The position numbers and the translations under genes were made by a program. The notes under the pieces are model-generated. The model was not told where the DNA came from, did not search any database, and saw only the letters and a list, made by a program, of their open reading frames with translations. Positions 1,524 through 58,081 of a stretch of 64,000 bases of DNA are shown here, one piece after another. Within the stretch, counting starts at the first letter, position 1. Each line of letters begins with the position of its first letter. Origin of the DNA: a virus; the IMG/VR virus record IMGVR_UViG_3300025889_000002, positions 16,573 through 80,572 of that record, one strand, 5' to 3'.

Positions 1524-2534
1524 ATGGCTATCGTTTCAGATCGTAACTACGGGCAGATTCTGACTGCCTCCGTTGCTCGTCGTTCGTCCGACGTGCAAAA
1601 TATCGTTTACAACTCCACTCCCCTGACAGCGATCCTTAAGGACATGGGGAAGATCAAGCAGAAGCGCGCGGGCGGGCCGGAACTTCGTGTCCCGATCATG
1701 TTCGACAAGCTCGAAGCACAGTGGTTCACTGGCTACGACAAGCTGCAGATCACTCCCAAGGAACTGCTGAACAGCGCGGTCTACAACTGGTCGCGTTGCG
1801 TTGGTATGTTCTCGCTCACCGGCACTGAACTGCTTTACAACAGCGGTGAAGACGAAGTTATCGACCTCATGGAAACCTACATGGATGCTGCTGAGCAGTC
1901 CGTGAAGGAAGCCTTCGAGGAAGGTCTCGTCGGTGATGGTACGGCAGACGGTGGTCGCCAGATGACGGGCCTTGGTTCGGCGGTTCCCATCGTCACCAAT
2001 ACCGGCGTATATGGCGGAATCGACCGTGCAACGGTTCCTAACTGGCGCACGTCCACCTTCGACATCCCGGCTGGCGATGTTGCGGGCTACACCACTTGGG
2101 ACAGCACCACGGCACGGGCGATCATCGAAAAGATCACCCTGCAGCGTTCGCGCGGTGGCCGTTATCCTGACCTGATCATTGCCGACGCCAATTCGTATGC
2201 TGCCATCTCGGCTGCATTCGTGGCACACCAGCGTCTCGCATCGGAACGTCTGGCACGCCTTGGCTTCACCGGCATGACGATCATCACCCCGGCAGGCCCG
2301 GTCGACGTGATCGCAGCAGGCGGTATCGGCAATGTCATGCCCGCAGATACGTTCTTCGGCATCGATACGCAGGGTATGGCGATCTACACGTTCCCCGGTC
2401 AGGAATTCGTTCCTTTCCATCCGGGCAACGGCATGCGTCCTATCAATCAGGATGCGGTGGCTCAGGGTGTGGTCTGGACAGGGCAGCTTGTCCTTGAAAA
2501 CCCGCTCTTCACCTATCGCGCCATCACGGCCTAA
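1524..2534 (+). CDS. Major capsid protein
   Basis: 336 aa, GAGGGG RBS, strongly conserved with 40776-41786, follows scaffold. Confidence 0.85.
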   Translation: MAIVSDRNYGQILTASVARRSSDVQNIVYNSTPLTAILKDMGKIKQKRAGGPELRVPIMFDKLEAQWFTGYDKLQITPKELLNSAVYNWSRCVGMFSLTGTELLYNSGEDEVIDLMETYMDAAEQSVKEAFEEGLVGDGTADGGRQMTGLGSAVPIVTNTGVYGGIDRATVPNWRTSTFDIPAGDVAGYTTWDSTTARAIIEKITLQRSRGGRYPDLIIADANSYAAISAAFVAHQRLASERLARLGFTGMTIITPAGPVDVIAAGGIGNVMPADTFFGIDTQGMAIYTFPGQEFVPFHPGNGMRPINQDAVAQGVVWTGQLVLENPLFTYRAITA

Positions 2535-2549
2535 AGAGAGGACTGAAAC

Positions 2550-2867
2550 ATGGTTACTTCACCTTTCCGCACCACTGGCCAGCTTGGCCCGGATCTGCAC
2601 CAGCAGGTTACTCCGGGCGAAGTCTGGTACGACAATCCCGATCTTGTCAGCCCCGTCGTGGGGACTCGCGAGACCGGCGACGACGGTTTCGACTATGTCT
2701 GGGTTCGCGCTTCTGCGACCATCTCGGCAGCATCGGCACCGGGCACGCAGGTTTCGATCACGGTTCCTGCTTACACGGCAGCGGCTGGCGCAGGCGGGTT
2801 TTATGCCCCGATTGCCGGTGTAACATCCGGCGATTACTTCTGGGCCAAGAAGGGTTCGACCCTTTAA
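2550..2867 (+). CDS. Putative capsid decoration/cement protein
   Basis: 105 aa, Ala/Gly/Thr-rich, strong RBS, nearly identical in unit B, precedes a terminator. Confidence 0.6.
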   Translation: MVTSPFRTTGQLGPDLHQQVTPGEVWYDNPDLVSPVVGTRETGDDGFDYVWVRASATISAASAPGTQVSITVPAYTAAAGAGGFYAPIAGVTSGDYFWAKKGSTL

Positions 2868-2874
2868 TTCGGTG

Positions 2875-2898
2875 GGGGGCCTTTGTGCCCCCTTCCTT
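2875..2898 (+). terminator. Putative weak intrinsic terminator
   Basis: GGGGGC-ctttgt-GCCCCC plus pyrimidine tail; positional equivalent at 42129. Confidence 0.5.
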
Positions 2899-2920
2899 CC
2901 TCTAGTTGGAGCGTCCATCC

Positions 2921-3655
2921 ATGACACAGTTAGCAGTTATCGACGAACGGGACCTTTCGGTTACGCCCGTATTCAAAGTTATCCAGGTTGAAGACATCAA
3001 CGCCTCCGAGCGCGCGGGCCATCTTGTGATGAAGACGCGCGAAGTCGTAGAGGTGCGCATTGCGGGTTATCGCGATGTGAAGGTTTTCCCCTCTGACGCT
3101 GTATGGCGGCGCGAAGGCAACAGGGCGATCACCTATGCCGAACGCTGGCCTGAACAGTACGCATCCTATCACAATGGCGACGACCAGATGGCAGTGGGCA
3201 CGCCGCTTGAAATGCTGCGTCCGTATGGCATTTCGGAATCGATGATTTCGGTCTGCCGCGCGCTGAAGGTGTATTCGATTGAAGCCCTGTATTCTCTTGA
3301 GGATCGGGGCCTCAAGGCGCTCGGCATGAACGGCAATCGGCTAAAGGACGCGGCCCGCCAGTTTATGTCCGAGCGCCAAACCACTGCATCGGCACTGTCC
3401 GAGGTTGAAGCCCTTAAGCAGCGCATTGCCGAGCTTGAGGCATCTGGTTCCAAGGTCGAGGTTCCCAAGGAACTGCCGACTGATGACGATGTGGAGGCTG
3501 CGCTGGCTGCATCCGATAGCGAGTTTGAGGGTATGAGCGACGACAATATCAAGGAAGAGATCGCGTTGCTTGCAGGTTCCAAGCCGCGCGGGAACCCCTC
3601 TCGCGCCACATTAGTCAACTCCCTGCGCGAATTGCGCGAAGCAAAGGCGGCATAA
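2921..3655 (+). CDS. Conserved phage morphogenesis-region protein
   Basis: Homolog at 42181-42915. Confidence 0.7.
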   Translation: MTQLAVIDERDLSVTPVFKVIQVEDINASERAGHLVMKTREVVEVRIAGYRDVKVFPSDAVWRREGNRAITYAERWPEQYASYHNGDDQMAVGTPLEMLRPYGISESMISVCRALKVYSIEALYSLEDRGLKALGMNGNRLKDAARQFMSERQTTASALSEVEALKQRIAELEASGSKVEVPKELPTDDDVEAALAASDSEFEGMSDDNIKEEIALLAGSKPRGNPSRATLVNSLRELREAKAA

Positions 3656-16143: not shown

Positions 16144-16397
16144 TTGCGGAAGTAGCTACCCTTTACGAAACCAACGCGCGTTCGATTCCTGACATGCTTC
16201 GCCAAGCGGCGGATAGCATCGAAGAGGAAGCCAGCGAAGATTGCTCACCGACCGTTGCCATGGTGGCTGTCCAAATATCAGAAAGCGGTCAGGTGCATGT
16301 TTATGGATGGGGCGACACTGATGACCTCCGCGCTATTGGCCTAATGGAGCGCGGAAAGCATAGCCTCTTGGCTTCTATCGAGGAACTTACGGCATGA
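16140..16397 (+). CDS. Hypothetical protein inserted in lysis module
   Basis: Flanked by 13-bp direct repeats; absent from unit B. Confidence 0.6.
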   Translation: MIAEVATLYETNARSIPDMLRQAADSIEEEASEDCSPTVAMVAVQISESGQVHVYGWGDTDDLRAIGLMERGKHSLLASIEELTA

Positions 16398-16765
16398 TTA
16401 CCACATTCTTTGCCTCGACCATCAATAAGGTATTCGCAGGTGTCGTTCTCGCGCTTCTGGTGGCCCTTGGGATAGCCATGTGGTCGAACGCCCGCAAGGA
16501 CGCCACAATTGAAACCCTGCGCAACGCAGTGGCCGTCTCGGAGGCACAGCATAGCGTAACCGCTGCATCACTGGACTCACTGACCCGCCGCATGAAGGAG
16601 CTTGTCGAACAAGGGCAGTTGCGGGAAAGCCTGCTAGCCGAAGCCATGAAGGAAGCGGAAGAAGAAACGTCCGAATTGCAGGACGAAGCCGACGCCCTAC
16701 GCAAGGAAGGTGTTACCGACCAGTGTGTGACGCCCGCTGGGGTGCTTCGAAGCCGTGGCTTGTGA
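16394..16765 (+). CDS. Inner-membrane spanin (Rz-like)
   Basis: N-terminal TM, coiled coil, C-terminal Cys. Confidence 0.65.
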   Translation: MITTFFASTINKVFAGVVLALLVALGIAMWSNARKDATIETLRNAVAVSEAQHSVTAASLDSLTRRMKELVEQGQLRESLLAEAMKEAEEETSELQDEADALRKEGVTDQCVTPAGVLRSRGL

Positions 16766-16883
16766 TGCTGCGGCGGGTCAGGATTTGAACCTGAGACTGA
16801 CCCGCCTTCGATCCACTAGGGCCATCGACGCAGCGCTCTATCCTACAGGGCTTGGCTCCCTTCTGAGCTACGCCGCCGCAGCA
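16766..16883 (-). ncRNA. tRNA-like RNA with enlarged D and anticodon arms
   Basis: Minus strand: TAGCTCAG...ATAGAGC, TCAGG-TTCAAAT-CCTGA, 11-bp closing stem, no encoded CCA. Confidence 0.65.
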
Positions 16884-16888
16884 AGGAG

Positions 16889-16917
16889 AAACTAGATGAA
16901 ACGCATCGCCATCGCAA
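16889..16917 (-). promoter_or_regulatory. sigma70-type promoter for tRNA-like RNA
   Basis: TTGCGA-17-TAGTTT; identical boxes at 56567-56595. Confidence 0.55.
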
Positions 16918-17165
16918 GCCTGTTGTTGCTTTCCGCCTGCAATCACCCGCAGCCTGGAATTGAGATACGTGAAATCCCGGTTGTCGTACCATCCCCTTGC
17001 TTGGCCAAAGACGACATCCCACCCGAACCAGCCCAAGTAGGCGACCAGCTAACCGGCAATGCCGCGTCAGACCTGCTTATCGTGGCGGCGTCTGCGCTGG
17101 AATTGCGGGCGGCGGTTATCACGATGAGAAGCGCGCTTTTGGCTTGTGCGGAGGGTGAGGGTTAG
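16896..17165 (+). CDS. Outer-membrane spanin lipoprotein (Rz1-like)
   Basis: Lipobox LSAC, Pro-rich, AAGGAG RBS. Confidence 0.8.
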   Translation: MKRIAIASLLLLSACNHPQPGIEIREIPVVVPSPCLAKDDIPPEPAQVGDQLTGNAASDLLIVAASALELRAAVITMRSALLACAEGEG

Positions 17166-19093
17166 CTGTTCCTGTAGGCGCTATATGCGTCCGCAACATC
17201 GGCAAGAGCGTTGGCGTGGAACCCTTCGTCAATGGCACTGTAATGTTCAGCGCGTTTGCGAAGGTCGGCCACGACAATAGCGATAGCGGCGTCTGCGTCA
17301 GGCAGCCAGCAATCAACCATCTCAGCCACGTCTGTTTCAGACAAGCTTGGGAAGTTCCGGCGGATCATCGCCTTCGCCACTTCATCCCTAAGCATACCAC
17401 ACTCCTTCCCCTGCGCCGTCATCCGGCATTCTCGGTTAGTATGCCAGAGGGTTTGGGCGCATGAACCGCGCTTTCGTCCTTCGGATCGAGCCCTTCGGTC
17501 TCGCCGGTTCCCGCTTCAATCGCTTGCGCGAGTATCCGGCTCAGCTCGGGGTCTGGCTTAGGCGGGTGGCACCATTCGCAAGGGCGGATGCATAAACAAG
17601 AACCCTCGCCTTCATCGTAGGTGTCGCATTGCCAATCCCACGAGCATCCGTAGATAAAGCCTTCGCCGTGGCAATTCGCGCAATCGCTTTCATCAAAATC
17701 CCAGTAGGGGTCATCCCCCCGCTCAATACCAATCGGCATCGGTCTGCTCCATAAAACCAAGGGGGTAATTTTCTGGCAAGGGCATCCAAATGGCACCGCG
17801 CAGAAAATCATCGCCCAGAGGAAAGGCGTCTTCGCCATCAAGCGGACCATCGTCGCTCATCATCGCAAGGGATGACGAGCAGCCATCATCGCAGACTATG
17901 ACAACCTTTTGCCCTGGTTGCGGCGGGTCGATTTCCCAAGACGCCCACGCGTCAGGGATTGAAGCCTTTGGTGGAGACGGCACGGCTCCATCGCGAAGCG
18001 ACGAAAGCCCGCCCGGACGCACATCATCCTTATCCATCACACCCTCCCTCCGTTAAGCGCATCCAGAGCGGCTTTAAGCAAAGACCTGCGGGGTGTTTCC
18101 ATGGGCAATATCCGCCCGGTGTAGCGATGACCTCCGCCGAATGCGTGGGGATCGCGATTAGTGCGGGTAAGGCGTTCTATGCGGCTCACTTTGCGGCTCC
18201 TTTCAGGGATCGGATGGCTTGGGCAACATCGTTGCAAGCCTCATTGTAGATGTCGGGCCGCATGTCTCCAGCAGACGCAGAGGCATCAACGTAGTGCTGC
18301 GCATAGCGTTCGCCTTCAGCAGACTCCGCCGCCCGCTCGTATGCCTCTCGCACCTGTTCCTCCAACCGAGTGTTACGGGCTTCGAGTGCGGCGATGTGGT
18401 CGCGGGCAGCAAGGAACGTGCACTCAGGGCGACCGCACTTGCAATCGAGCAAGACAAGCATGTCCTGCGTCTGCTGTGCTAGATCACTCACTGGCCTGAT
18501 CCTTCGTTGAGTAGGTTGTCGATGCGAGTGATAGCCTCCCATGCGATTGCATCGTTCATTTCATGCCCACCGCCGGGGTCGCCTTCGCAAACCGCACAGC
18601 CACGACAATTGTTGCTTATGCGCTCCAGATACTCCCTCACTGTCATGAACCCTTCCCGCTCTCGCGTGGGGGCGGATAGGGCGGCGCAAGAGGGGCATGG
18701 CAGACCTAAATCAGACGGCAGCATGGTGCGGTGGCCAACGGGTGGATCGACTGCATAAACTCGAGCGGCTTCACGCGCCGCTGCCACCTTGTCGGCTTCG
18801 GTTTCGCAGGCGTCCTTATCCCAAGCCAGTTTTGCCAAAAGGCCCGTTGCCGCCTCGACGTTTGCCACCCAGTCGGCAAACTCATCCCGATAGCGGTCGT
18901 CGTCCCATTCATACGGCCCGCGCCCTTCCAGCAGCCAGCGATGCCCGTTGAGCGCGCGTTTAATGTGGCCAAGTGCGATTGCCACAATGTAGCGATCACG
19001 GTCGAGCAGATGGCGCATGTCTTCCAACCCCGCCGCGCTCGGCTCGGTCTTGGCGGATTTCAGCATTTCTCCTGCTTTGTTACCATCGGTCAT
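17162..19093 (-). other. Leftward cluster of small hypothetical genes, including a Cys-rich protein and 18488-19093
   Basis: Chained overlapping ORFs; two have homologs at 58859-59164 and 59694-60374. Confidence 0.6.
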
Positions 19094-55987: not shown

Positions 55988-56089
55988 AACCATTTCGCGC
56001 CGGATACGAACTAGGCTATGGTACGCCGCCCCAGTGATAGGGCTGGCCTTGGGCTGTCTTGGGTATGCGATTTATATAGGAGTGACGGG

Positions 56090-56461
56090 ATGATTAAGGC
56101 TTTCTTCGGTCCCATCGTGAACCGTATCTTCGCAGGCGTCGTTTTCGCGCTGCTTGCCGCTCTCGGCATTGCCCTGTGGTCGAATGCGGCCAAGGATCGC
56201 GAGAATGACCGCCTCCGCAACACTCTCGCAGTCTCGGAAGCACAGCACAGCGTAACAGCAGCGTCTCTGGATGCCCTGACGCGCCGGATGCAGCAGCTTG
56301 TCGATGAAGGCAAGCTACGCCAGAGCCTTTTGGAAGACGCCATGAAGGACGCGGAAGCGGAAGCGGAAGACTTGCAGGACGAAGCCGATGCACTGCGCAA
56401 GGAAGGCGTGGTCGATCAGTGTGTGACGCCAGCTGGGGTGCTGCGCTCGAAAGGGCTTTAG
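56090..56461 (+). CDS. Inner-membrane spanin (Rz-like)
   Basis: Homolog of 16394-16765. Confidence 0.65.
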   Translation: MIKAFFGPIVNRIFAGVVFALLAALGIALWSNAAKDRENDRLRNTLAVSEAQHSVTAASLDALTRRMQQLVDEGKLRQSLLEDAMKDAEAEAEDLQDEADALRKEGVVDQCVTPAGVLRSKGL

Positions 56462-56464
56462 GGG

Positions 56465-56561
56465 TGCTGCGGTTCTTGGTGGGATTCGAACCCACGGCGG
56501 GGGCTTCTAACCCCTGCGGAATCAAACCTGCCTTAGACCACTCAGCCACAAGGCCGCAGCA
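56465..56561 (-). ncRNA. tRNA-like RNA (Ser/Leu-type scaffold, truncated anticodon arm)
   Basis: TGGCTGAGTGGTCTAAGGC D arm, long variable hairpin, GTGGG-TTCGAAT-CCCAC T arm, TGCTGCGG/CCGCAGCA closing stem. Confidence 0.7.
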
Positions 56562-56573
56562 AGGAGAAACTAG

Positions 56574-56843
56574 ATGAAACGCATTGCCATCGCAAGCCTG
56601 TTATTGCTTTCCGCCTGCAACCATCCGCAGCCGGGGATTTCCGTGCGTACTGTGGAGGTCCCGGTTCCTCAGCCTTGTTTAAAATCAGCGGATATTCCTC
56701 CCGAACCAGCCCAAGTAGGCGACCAGCTAACCGGCAATGCCGCGTCCGACCTGCTTATCGTGGCTGCATCTGCTCTGGAATTGCGGGCTGCGGTGATCAC
56801 CATGCGTGCAGCCCTTATGGCTTGTGCGAGTGATGGGGGTTAG
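56574..56843 (+). CDS. Outer-membrane spanin lipoprotein (Rz1-like)
   Basis: Lipobox LSAC; homolog of 16896. Confidence 0.8.
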   Translation: MKRIAIASLLLLSACNHPQPGISVRTVEVPVPQPCLKSADIPPEPAQVGDQLTGNAASDLLIVAASALELRAAVITMRAALMACASDGG

Positions 56844-58081
56844 GGGCAATATCGTAACCTTGCTCCACCAGCGCCCTAAGCACCGCCGACGCAGCAGCTT
56901 CGGAAGCCGCCTTGAACACATTGTCTGCCTGATCTTCAATATGTGTGCGGCTCAAGTATTCCTCTAGTGTGCTTGGACGGAAATCATCAGGCCCGTTATT
57001 GGCCCAATCCGTATGATCGGTATATTCTGAATTTGGCCAAGGAAAACTCTTGCGCGCGCCTTCTTCGATTGCCTTCGTGATTATCTCTTTCGGTGTCATC
57101 ATACCCTCTCCCTACCATGCTTCAGAGATACCAGGAGCATGTCTATAACGTGCCGTGATGTGCCAAGGCCAAGCTGCTCGGCAATGCGGTGGGGGAGAGG
57201 GCGATTGCCACCTCGTCGGCAACGAATTTACTCACAGCCTTGGCTAAGGCGGCGTGGCTAGCGTCTTCCTTCGACTGCTCCCGAATTATCCGGAATGCGT
57301 CGATGTAGTGGTACTCTGGATTAAGCGCCTCCACGGCCTCGGAGTTGGCCTTGGTCATACTCTCGATCCTTTGAATATCCGCGCAAACAGTCCGGGCCTC
57401 TCCATGGGCAGGATGCGCGCGTTGTAGTGGTAGCCGCCGCCAAAGTTCTGGCGAGGTGCGCACCTGTGGCTGCGTTCGTATGTGTGCGAGCGGGTCATTC
57501 GATCACCACCTTGACCGCGCCAGACTTTACGATGTCCACGATTTCGCGCTTAGTCAGGTTGTGGATGGCAGAGCGAATAGCCGCCGAAAGCGCATCTGCC
57601 TCCTTGCGGACGGCGCTGTTCAGTATCTGACGGGCTTCACTTGGGGGCCTTCCGTATCCGCCGAGATCGAACATGGTGAACGTGGATAGGTCGTCCAGAA
57701 GGCTCACTGCCTTGTCGTAGATTTTCTGGCCTGCGTCGTCGTCCAGTTTGGCGTTGGCGATGTCGGTGGCGAGAGAATAGCCTGCGTTCGTAATGATCCG
57801 CTCAGCGTTCTCTCTGGCATATCCACTTAGCCCAGAAAGGATGGCGTCCTTGATCTCGGCCTCATTGACATACTCCATGATGTCGATATCCATCTCAAAC
57901 ACTCCCTGCCATTGATTGTGCGTCGTCCCATTCGGCGTTGAGATCCGCCCACCTCGCCTCGCCCATCCTGTCGCGTGCGTGGGCTATGTGCCGATCCAGG
58001 CTGTAGTTCGCCTCCCATTCGCGGGTGAGAACATCACGCGCGGCATGGTCTTGCTGGCGGCTGAGTTGTGCTGTGCGGCTC
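56815..58081 (-). other. Leftward cluster of small hypothetical genes
   Basis: Chained ORFs 56815-57102, 57143-57358, 57355-57498, 57495-57902. Confidence 0.6.

Follow-up and report, generated by a model that had tools for sequence, protein, structure and literature searches.

Inserted DNA is known to rearrange the genes of two-component spanins. Between phages T5 and Shivani, a homing-endonuclease gene inserted between the spanin genes has turned an overlapped into a separated architecture (PMC6139136). A tRNA-like RNA domain with an additional terminal helix is known from the bacterial Y RNA YrlA, whose terminal stem emerges on the anticodon side, whose 'acceptor' forms a closed hairpin and whose genes adjoin rsr (PMC4201824). 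The third point of reference is formed by the tRNA pseudogenes and degenerate tRNA copies of phages (RF00005), and the fourth by cargo slots for counter-defence genes such as Tad1.

The locus described here, a spacer between the two spanin genes of a phage, resembles the T5/Shivani case in that inserted DNA splits the i- and o-spanin genes, one relative (L007) has an HNH endonuclease gene in the gap, and the N-terminal signal sequence of the o-spanin is rebuilt with each insert. It differs in that the insert studied here consists of about 100 nt of non-coding, stem-closed, tRNA-derived DNA rather than a gene. With YrlA it shares a terminal helix formed from the two ends, T- and D-arm-like hairpins and the lack of a working anticodon arm. 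However, its stem extends the acceptor and not the anticodon side, no TROVE/Rsr gene lies within 4 kb of the element or anywhere in the same phage genome, the GNCGAA motif was not seen on reading the sequence, and the Rfam Y RNA families gave no match to the element at E values up to 10. We thus reject a bacterial Y RNA on account of the missing Rsr gene, the missing model match and the wrong topology, and regard the likeness as superficial. The nearest known kind is the phage-borne tRNA pseudogene, as the D arm, variable hairpin and T arm are all recognisable; in contrast to such pseudogenes, the element runs antisense to the adjoining genes and lies within an additional 8-bp helix, which unrelated inserts also have. 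The same junction carries a Tad1 homologue in a close relative, as a counter-defence cargo slot would, whereas the spacer studied here encodes no protein and gives no sign of acting against defence.

The spanin genes and the stem between them

The window, i.e. the whole 64,000-nt stretch of DNA that was analysed, corresponds to positions 16573-80572 of an 80572-base record in which two diverged phage genomes, each about 40 kb long, stand in tandem (units A and B). The two units are 68-98% identical where alignable, with a longest exact shared stretch of 57 bp, and are two related phages. The terminal repeat of the record is exactly 100 bp, and the tandem may have arisen from a figure-of-eight assembly in which two co-occurring phages were joined, in other words an artefact and not one 80-kb genome. 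A contig of Qipengyuania pacifica contains a relative, which makes Erythrobacteraceae the probable hosts, and an encoded SU10-type adaptor domain suggests that the phage is a podovirus. The window also encodes three HNH_3 proteins.

In unit B, an endolysin gene (PF00959, E 5.5e-46) precedes the i-spanin (Rz-like) gene on the plus strand at 56090-56461; its ORF opens at 56018, the homologues start at the ATG at 56090, and the stop codon TAG occupies 56459-56461. The encoded protein has a membrane helix at its N terminus, a coiled-coil body and a Cys at its C terminus; it matches the PHROG Rz-like spanins weakly (E 0.004) and is homologous to that of the unit A gene at 16394-16765. The o-spanin (Rz1-like) gene, also on the plus strand (56574-56843), encodes an outer-membrane lipoprotein with a signal peptide, the lipobox LSAC and a proline-rich body; its 40 homologues are all small lipoproteins. 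The membrane-helix i-spanin, the lipobox-bearing o-spanin, the adjoining endolysin and the gap of 112 nt between the genes identify a two-component spanin of separated architecture, and the tRNA sense of the spacer is antisense to both genes. Homology between the two units ends exactly at the o-spanin stop codon (56844-57500 versus 17166-17900), and the convergent minus-strand genes beyond it are unrelated between the units and unannotated, forming a second variable region beside the slot.

The spacer is closed by an inverted repeat whose left arm (56465-56472, plus strand TGCTGCGG; the 3' arm on the minus strand) and right arm (56554-56561, plus strand CCGCAGCA) are 100% complementary over 8 bp. 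The same arm measures 11 bp in unit A and 10 bp with one mismatch in a third variant, L010 (Ga0181432_1024413). Its placement is tight: the left arm begins 3 nt past the i-spanin stop codon in unit B and 0-3 nt past it across the variants, and the last base of the right arm is the first base of the Shine-Dalgarno sequence AAGGAG (56561-56566). Unit A, unit B and L010 share an identical flank from the right arm through the first o-spanin codons. All three variants form the closing stem and leave the Shine-Dalgarno sequence unpaired when the plus strand is folded at minimum energy. Seven pairs of the unit B stem were scored: six have pair probabilities of 0.96-1.0, and the innermost has 0.33. 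In each of the three pairwise comparisons, homology is lost exactly inside the arms, and removal of the interiors would leave a perfect palindrome of 16-22 bp.

A further repeat involves the left arm of unit B. An 11-nt direct repeat (56435-56445 = 56461-56471, plus strand, 26 nt apart) has three exact copies in the window against 0.04 expected, and the left arm with its preceding bases repeats the i-spanin codons for G-V-L-R. The arm 8-mer itself is not clearly over-represented (10 occurrences versus 5.25 expected), an enrichment too small to be significant for a Chi-like hot spot, and a dispersed repeat of the MITE or REP type was rejected since only two slot copies share the flank in the record. 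Exact-pattern scans of IMG/VR found neither the right flank (as a 23-mer and an 18-mer) nor the unit B junction, and no second copy of the unit B insert was found there. Three further candidates were dropped: an integron attC site, because the arms read without a GTTRRRY core and no integrase was found; a retron msr/msd, because no reverse transcriptase domain was found; and an intrinsic terminator, because there is no T-run.

Origin and damage of the tRNA-like insert

Read on the minus strand from 56561 to 56465, the unit B element consists of an 8-nt arm, a tRNA-like body and the complementary 8-nt arm. The element proper thus spans 56465-56561, and the longer interval 56465-56595 also covers the o-spanin ribosome-binding site and first codons. 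The body (56471-56555) was assigned to tRNA-Ser(UGA) from its RF00005 match, from alignments to phage and host tRNA-Ser genes and from BLAST. It comprises, all on the minus strand, the 5' strand of the acceptor (56555-56549), a class II D arm (56546-56530), an anticodon remnant with a two-pair stem (56528-56516) and TGA at 56524-56522, a GGGG/CCCC variable hairpin (56515-56497), a perfect T arm (56495-56479) and the 3' strand of the acceptor (56478-56472), which pairs at five of seven positions. An earlier note on this DNA had read the minus strand in the same way, with canonical-looking D and T arms, an anticodon stem of about 2 bp around TGA and the GGGG/CCCC variable hairpin, and we arrive at the identical reading. 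The note saw in it a class II (Ser/Leu-like) scaffold whose D and T arms are intact and whose anticodon arm is ruined; the alignment to tRNA-Ser(UGA) bears this out and identifies the Ser type.

The body lies below the thresholds of the standard tRNA models. With permissive thresholds, RF00005 scored 25.7 bits at 56471-56555 on the minus strand, short of the curated gathering score of 29 bits, and this was the sole RF00005 match in the 80.5-kb record (E 1.4e-4 for the record). An Rfam scan with gathering scores reached no family, and ARAGORN reported zero tRNAs in the whole window at default settings and an odd 85-nt tRNA form for the unit B element only with the threshold lowered to 90%. The tRNA likeness of the element is genuine, though sub-threshold: the E value of the tRNA model and the BLAST matches to tRNA-Ser genes rule out a chance cloverleaf. 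BLAST against 201 Erythrobacteraceae genomes gave matches in 198, the best of them with 75-80% identity over query positions 6 or 14 to 85 and E values down to 4e-10, and all six of the best-scoring host loci checked were tRNA-Ser(tga) genes according to ARAGORN. In phage records, the longest BLAST matches of the 100-nt element fell on annotated tRNA-Ser genes, and the alignment to these phage genes agrees with the host result. A tmRNA was discarded as a candidate, since the ARAGORN tmRNA search returned nothing at a threshold of 85%.

Conservation differs between the parts of the body. Over the T arm and its 5' junction, 20 of 20 aligned positions agree with host tRNA-Ser(UGA) genes, and the D arm differs by two changes; all loop bases for the tertiary (elbow) contacts between the D and T loops are retained, so that the conserved D- and T-arm sequences of a canonical tRNA are in place. 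The variable arm differs in sequence from the host tRNA-Ser genes with its hairpin preserved, and both strands of the inner four acceptor pairs differ from the host genes with their pairing preserved. The five-pair anticodon stem and 7-nt loop of a canonical tRNA are absent: four nucleotides of the 5' strand of the stem are deleted and three loop positions are changed, TGA still standing at the anticodon position. A functional tRNA with an intron does not account for this, since it is the stem that carries the deletion and a group I intron is absent. At the other end, the acceptor falls short of seven pairs because of mismatches at 2-71 and 3-70, the discriminator is a C in place of the G of host tRNA-Ser, and CCA is absent, the element reading GCAG where host genes read GCCA. 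The 5' and 3' flanks of the pseudo-tRNA pair with each other.

Taken by its best full-length similarity, its long variable arm and the TGA at the anticodon position, the unit B element descends from tRNA-Ser(UGA). With four nucleotides deleted from the anticodon stem, two acceptor pairs broken, an incorrect discriminator base and no CCA, it is unable to decode. Stems that differ in sequence and remain paired, like the variable and inner acceptor ones, are what a copy of a working tRNA from a different lineage should show; the source was a tRNA-Ser(UGA) from outside the sampled host lineages, put out of action by one deletion and a few substitutions.

The counterpart in unit A (16766-16883, minus strand) is an 11-bp closing repeat around a 96-nt interior. 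This interior contains a tRNA-like T arm (21 of 23 positions identical to host tRNAs) and the start of a D arm, with no full-length tRNA homologue, and ARAGORN reported a Tyr-like form only with introns allowed and the threshold lowered to 85%. It carries a 22-nt insertion in the D-loop region, and an internal 10-bp helix (16772-16781 / 16797-16806) competes with the T arm. Flanks and arms of units A and B align and the interiors do not, in agreement with the earlier note, which had described a non-homologous counterpart in the same slot of unit A.

A variable slot between the spanin genes

In this group of marine phages, the spanin junction serves as a variable accessory slot. Two relatives (L004 and L008) have no gap at all, the i-spanin stop overlapping the o-spanin start as TAATG. 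In a close relative (L006, IMGVR_UViG_3300001726_000009), a 117-aa ORF lies exactly between the spanin genes (1936-2289); it is a homologue of Tad1 (Thoeris anti-defence 1; PDB 8kbb, E 8e-23), with a match to the Pfam family Acb2_Tad1_hairpin just under threshold. The gap of L007 (IMGVR_UViG_3300009603_000028, 1892-3207) contains a small ORF and the gene of a 271-aa HNH endonuclease (phrog_374, E 2.8e-54). Unit A, unit B and L010 hold non-coding interiors of 96, 81 and 65 nt, respectively, which are mutually unalignable, lie within common arms and precede the same ribosome-binding site and signal-peptide codons. The L010 spacer (901-985) is devoid of tRNA features, and its 65-nt interior found no match in 61 genomes of the host family or in Rfam. 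L010 and unit B have almost identical i-spanin flanks, so that the exchange of interiors between these two is recent.

The exchanged segment seems to reach beyond the spacer. The o-spanin signal peptide occurs in at least five unrelated versions that track the slot content (56574-56620 in unit B and 16896-16940 in unit A; proteins P0006-P0035), with conservation of the mature lipoprotein beginning at the lipobox Cys. Seven further o-spanins (P0006, P0008-P0011, P0030 and P0033) have the signal peptide that goes with the arm-type slot. Because the signal peptide varies with the slot content and the mature o-spanin does not, whole modules, from the last Rz codons to the lipobox, appear to be exchanged among these phages. 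The 1-kb region had no BLAST match in the phage collection, and protein searches in 401 family and 85 genus genomes found distant prophages only, none of which had a spacer among those read.

Passenger DNA or functional element

With middling confidence, we propose that the element is a tRNA-Ser(UGA) relic, carried within a stem-closed spacer that lies at a recombination hot spot, with a tRNA shape that has no dedicated function. The tRNA-derived interior would be a passenger, either captured or left-over DNA, and the closing stem would be the part kept by selection or descent. Whole slot modules would be swapped via recombination in the conserved coding flanks and would take along the final codons of Rz and the signal peptide of Rz1. 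In the late mRNA, the stem could pinch the spacer off and bring the Rz stop codon and the Rz1 Shine-Dalgarno sequence side by side. The stem may be kept for this pinching off in the lysis mRNA, or the palindrome may be a fragile site that repeatedly captures filler DNA, which would include copies of tRNA genes. Some findings sit uneasily with this proposal. Of the three spacer variants, two resemble tRNA, each with a disrupted anticodon arm, which a pure relic would explain only as coincidence, and the D and T loops retain every base of their tertiary contacts. As to the stem, the o-spanin has its own strong Shine-Dalgarno sequence, so that the stem is not needed for translational coupling.

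Closely related to this proposal, and differing from it only in assigning a positive function to the whole spacer, is the idea of a cis-acting element of the late mRNA, in which the plus-strand spacer would serve as a compact stem-closed site for processing or stability, or as a tuner of o-spanin translation, the interior being irrelevant. The closing stem with its unpaired Shine-Dalgarno sequence in the folds of all three variants, the fixed position of the arms between stop codon and Shine-Dalgarno sequence and the onset of non-homology exactly inside the arms in every pairwise comparison all speak for such an element. We nevertheless consider it unlikely: folding of the spacers is not clearly better than that of shuffled sequences (plus-strand z-scores of -1.0, -2.7 and +0.16), the arms are conserved across the three sequences without covariation, the spacer has neither a helix of RNase III length nor a terminator, and L004 and L008 do well without any spacer.

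A working tRNA mimic would instead be transcribed from the minus strand, alone or as the tail of a convergent early operon, as a tRNA-shaped RNA held by the long closing helix. It would act through the T/D elbow, with its destroyed anticodon arm and acceptor end barring it from translation, as a decoy or inhibitor of a tRNA-directed host nuclease or modification enzyme or as a handle for a tRNA-binding protein, and different phages would carry different mimics (Ser-like or of the unit A type) as interchangeable cassettes. The identical T arm, the nearly intact D arm with its elbow-contact bases, the paired variable and inner acceptor stems of altered sequence and the recurrence of tRNA-like spacers disrupted in the anticodon region are what such a mimic would be expected to show; Tad1 in the same slot of a close relative indicates that the slot can hold counter-defence cargo, and bacterial and phage Y RNAs show that a tRNA-like domain with a terminal stem can function (PMC4201824). 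The promoter scan and the folding point the other way. The tRNA-sense strand has no sigma-70-like promoter in either unit, in a scan for the sigma-70 consensus that phage-specific promoters or read-through from convergent genes would escape, and in unit B no terminator follows the element on that strand, which is antisense to the late lysis mRNA. The minus-strand cloverleaf with closing stem (-32.3 kcal/mol) is 10 kcal/mol worse than the minimum-energy fold (-42.6 kcal/mol), and in the ensemble the D stem almost never forms (pair probability 0.03, against 0.28 for the T stem and near 1.0 for the closing stem). Neither an integrase or recombinase nor a TROVE/Rsr or RNA-repair domain occurs among the 75 ORFs of unit B and surroundings, and no partner protein is encoded nearby. 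The absence of tRNA features from the L010 spacer, the lack of a second copy in IMG/VR and the very few mutations needed to explain the damage likewise weigh against a mimic, which we hold to be doubtful. The fuller scenario, an exchangeable stem-closed RNA cassette whose tRNA-shaped versions, Ser-derived in unit B and expanded in the D loop in unit A, are expressed as anticodon-less mimics that mislead or bind a tRNA-directed host factor, strikes us as more doubtful still.

The earlier note had taken the sparing of the T arm, with damage concentrated on the anticodon arm and acceptor end, as an argument against random decay and for a mimic; neither step is supported by the comparison. The damage amounts to one 4-nt deletion, three loop substitutions and two acceptor mismatches, and intact D and T arms are expected in a recently disabled copy, since those arms barely vary among real tRNA-Ser genes. 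On a rough count of about six damaging events, the chance that all miss the 36 nt of the D and T arms is near 0.04, in a test chosen post hoc. With D and T arms invariant in the parent family and so few damage events, the argument that sparing of the T arm excludes decay is weak. Against the step to a working mimic stand the third spacer without tRNA features, the missing sigma-70-like promoter and the cloverleaf 10 kcal/mol above the minimum.

Transfer RNA genes are the usual targets of site-specific integration, and att cores normally extend to the tRNA 3' end. The element could in this sense be an attP-type tRNA fragment or a former integration target, and the identity of its T arm to host tRNAs over 19-20 nt would fit. 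This origin is very improbable, however: no integrase or recombinase domain was found among the 75 ORFs, the identity to host tRNAs is confined to the T arm and stops before the 3' acceptor strand, the whole tRNA body including the D arm is present and not a 3' fragment, and the element lies inside the lysis cassette. An attP core in a tRNA gene is disfavoured on the same grounds, as there is no adjacent integrase and the identity block falls short of the tRNA 3' end.

If the element is only a relic, its value is descriptive: it marks the i-/o-spanin junction as a hot spot for genes (Tad1, HNH endonuclease) and for non-coding filler, and the comparison shows that each slot swap rebuilds the o-spanin signal peptide. 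The three unrelated interiors within the same arms and near-identical flanks hint at a structural requirement of the lysis mRNA or at an insertion process at the palindrome centre. If the cassette scenario were true, the insert would be a non-coding counterpart of the Tad1 gene at the same spot in a sister phage, and a functional tRNA shape would add an RNA example to phage counter-defence cargo. The main value of the finding lies not in the tRNA likeness, but in an interchangeable stem-closed spacer within a slot that elsewhere carries Tad1.
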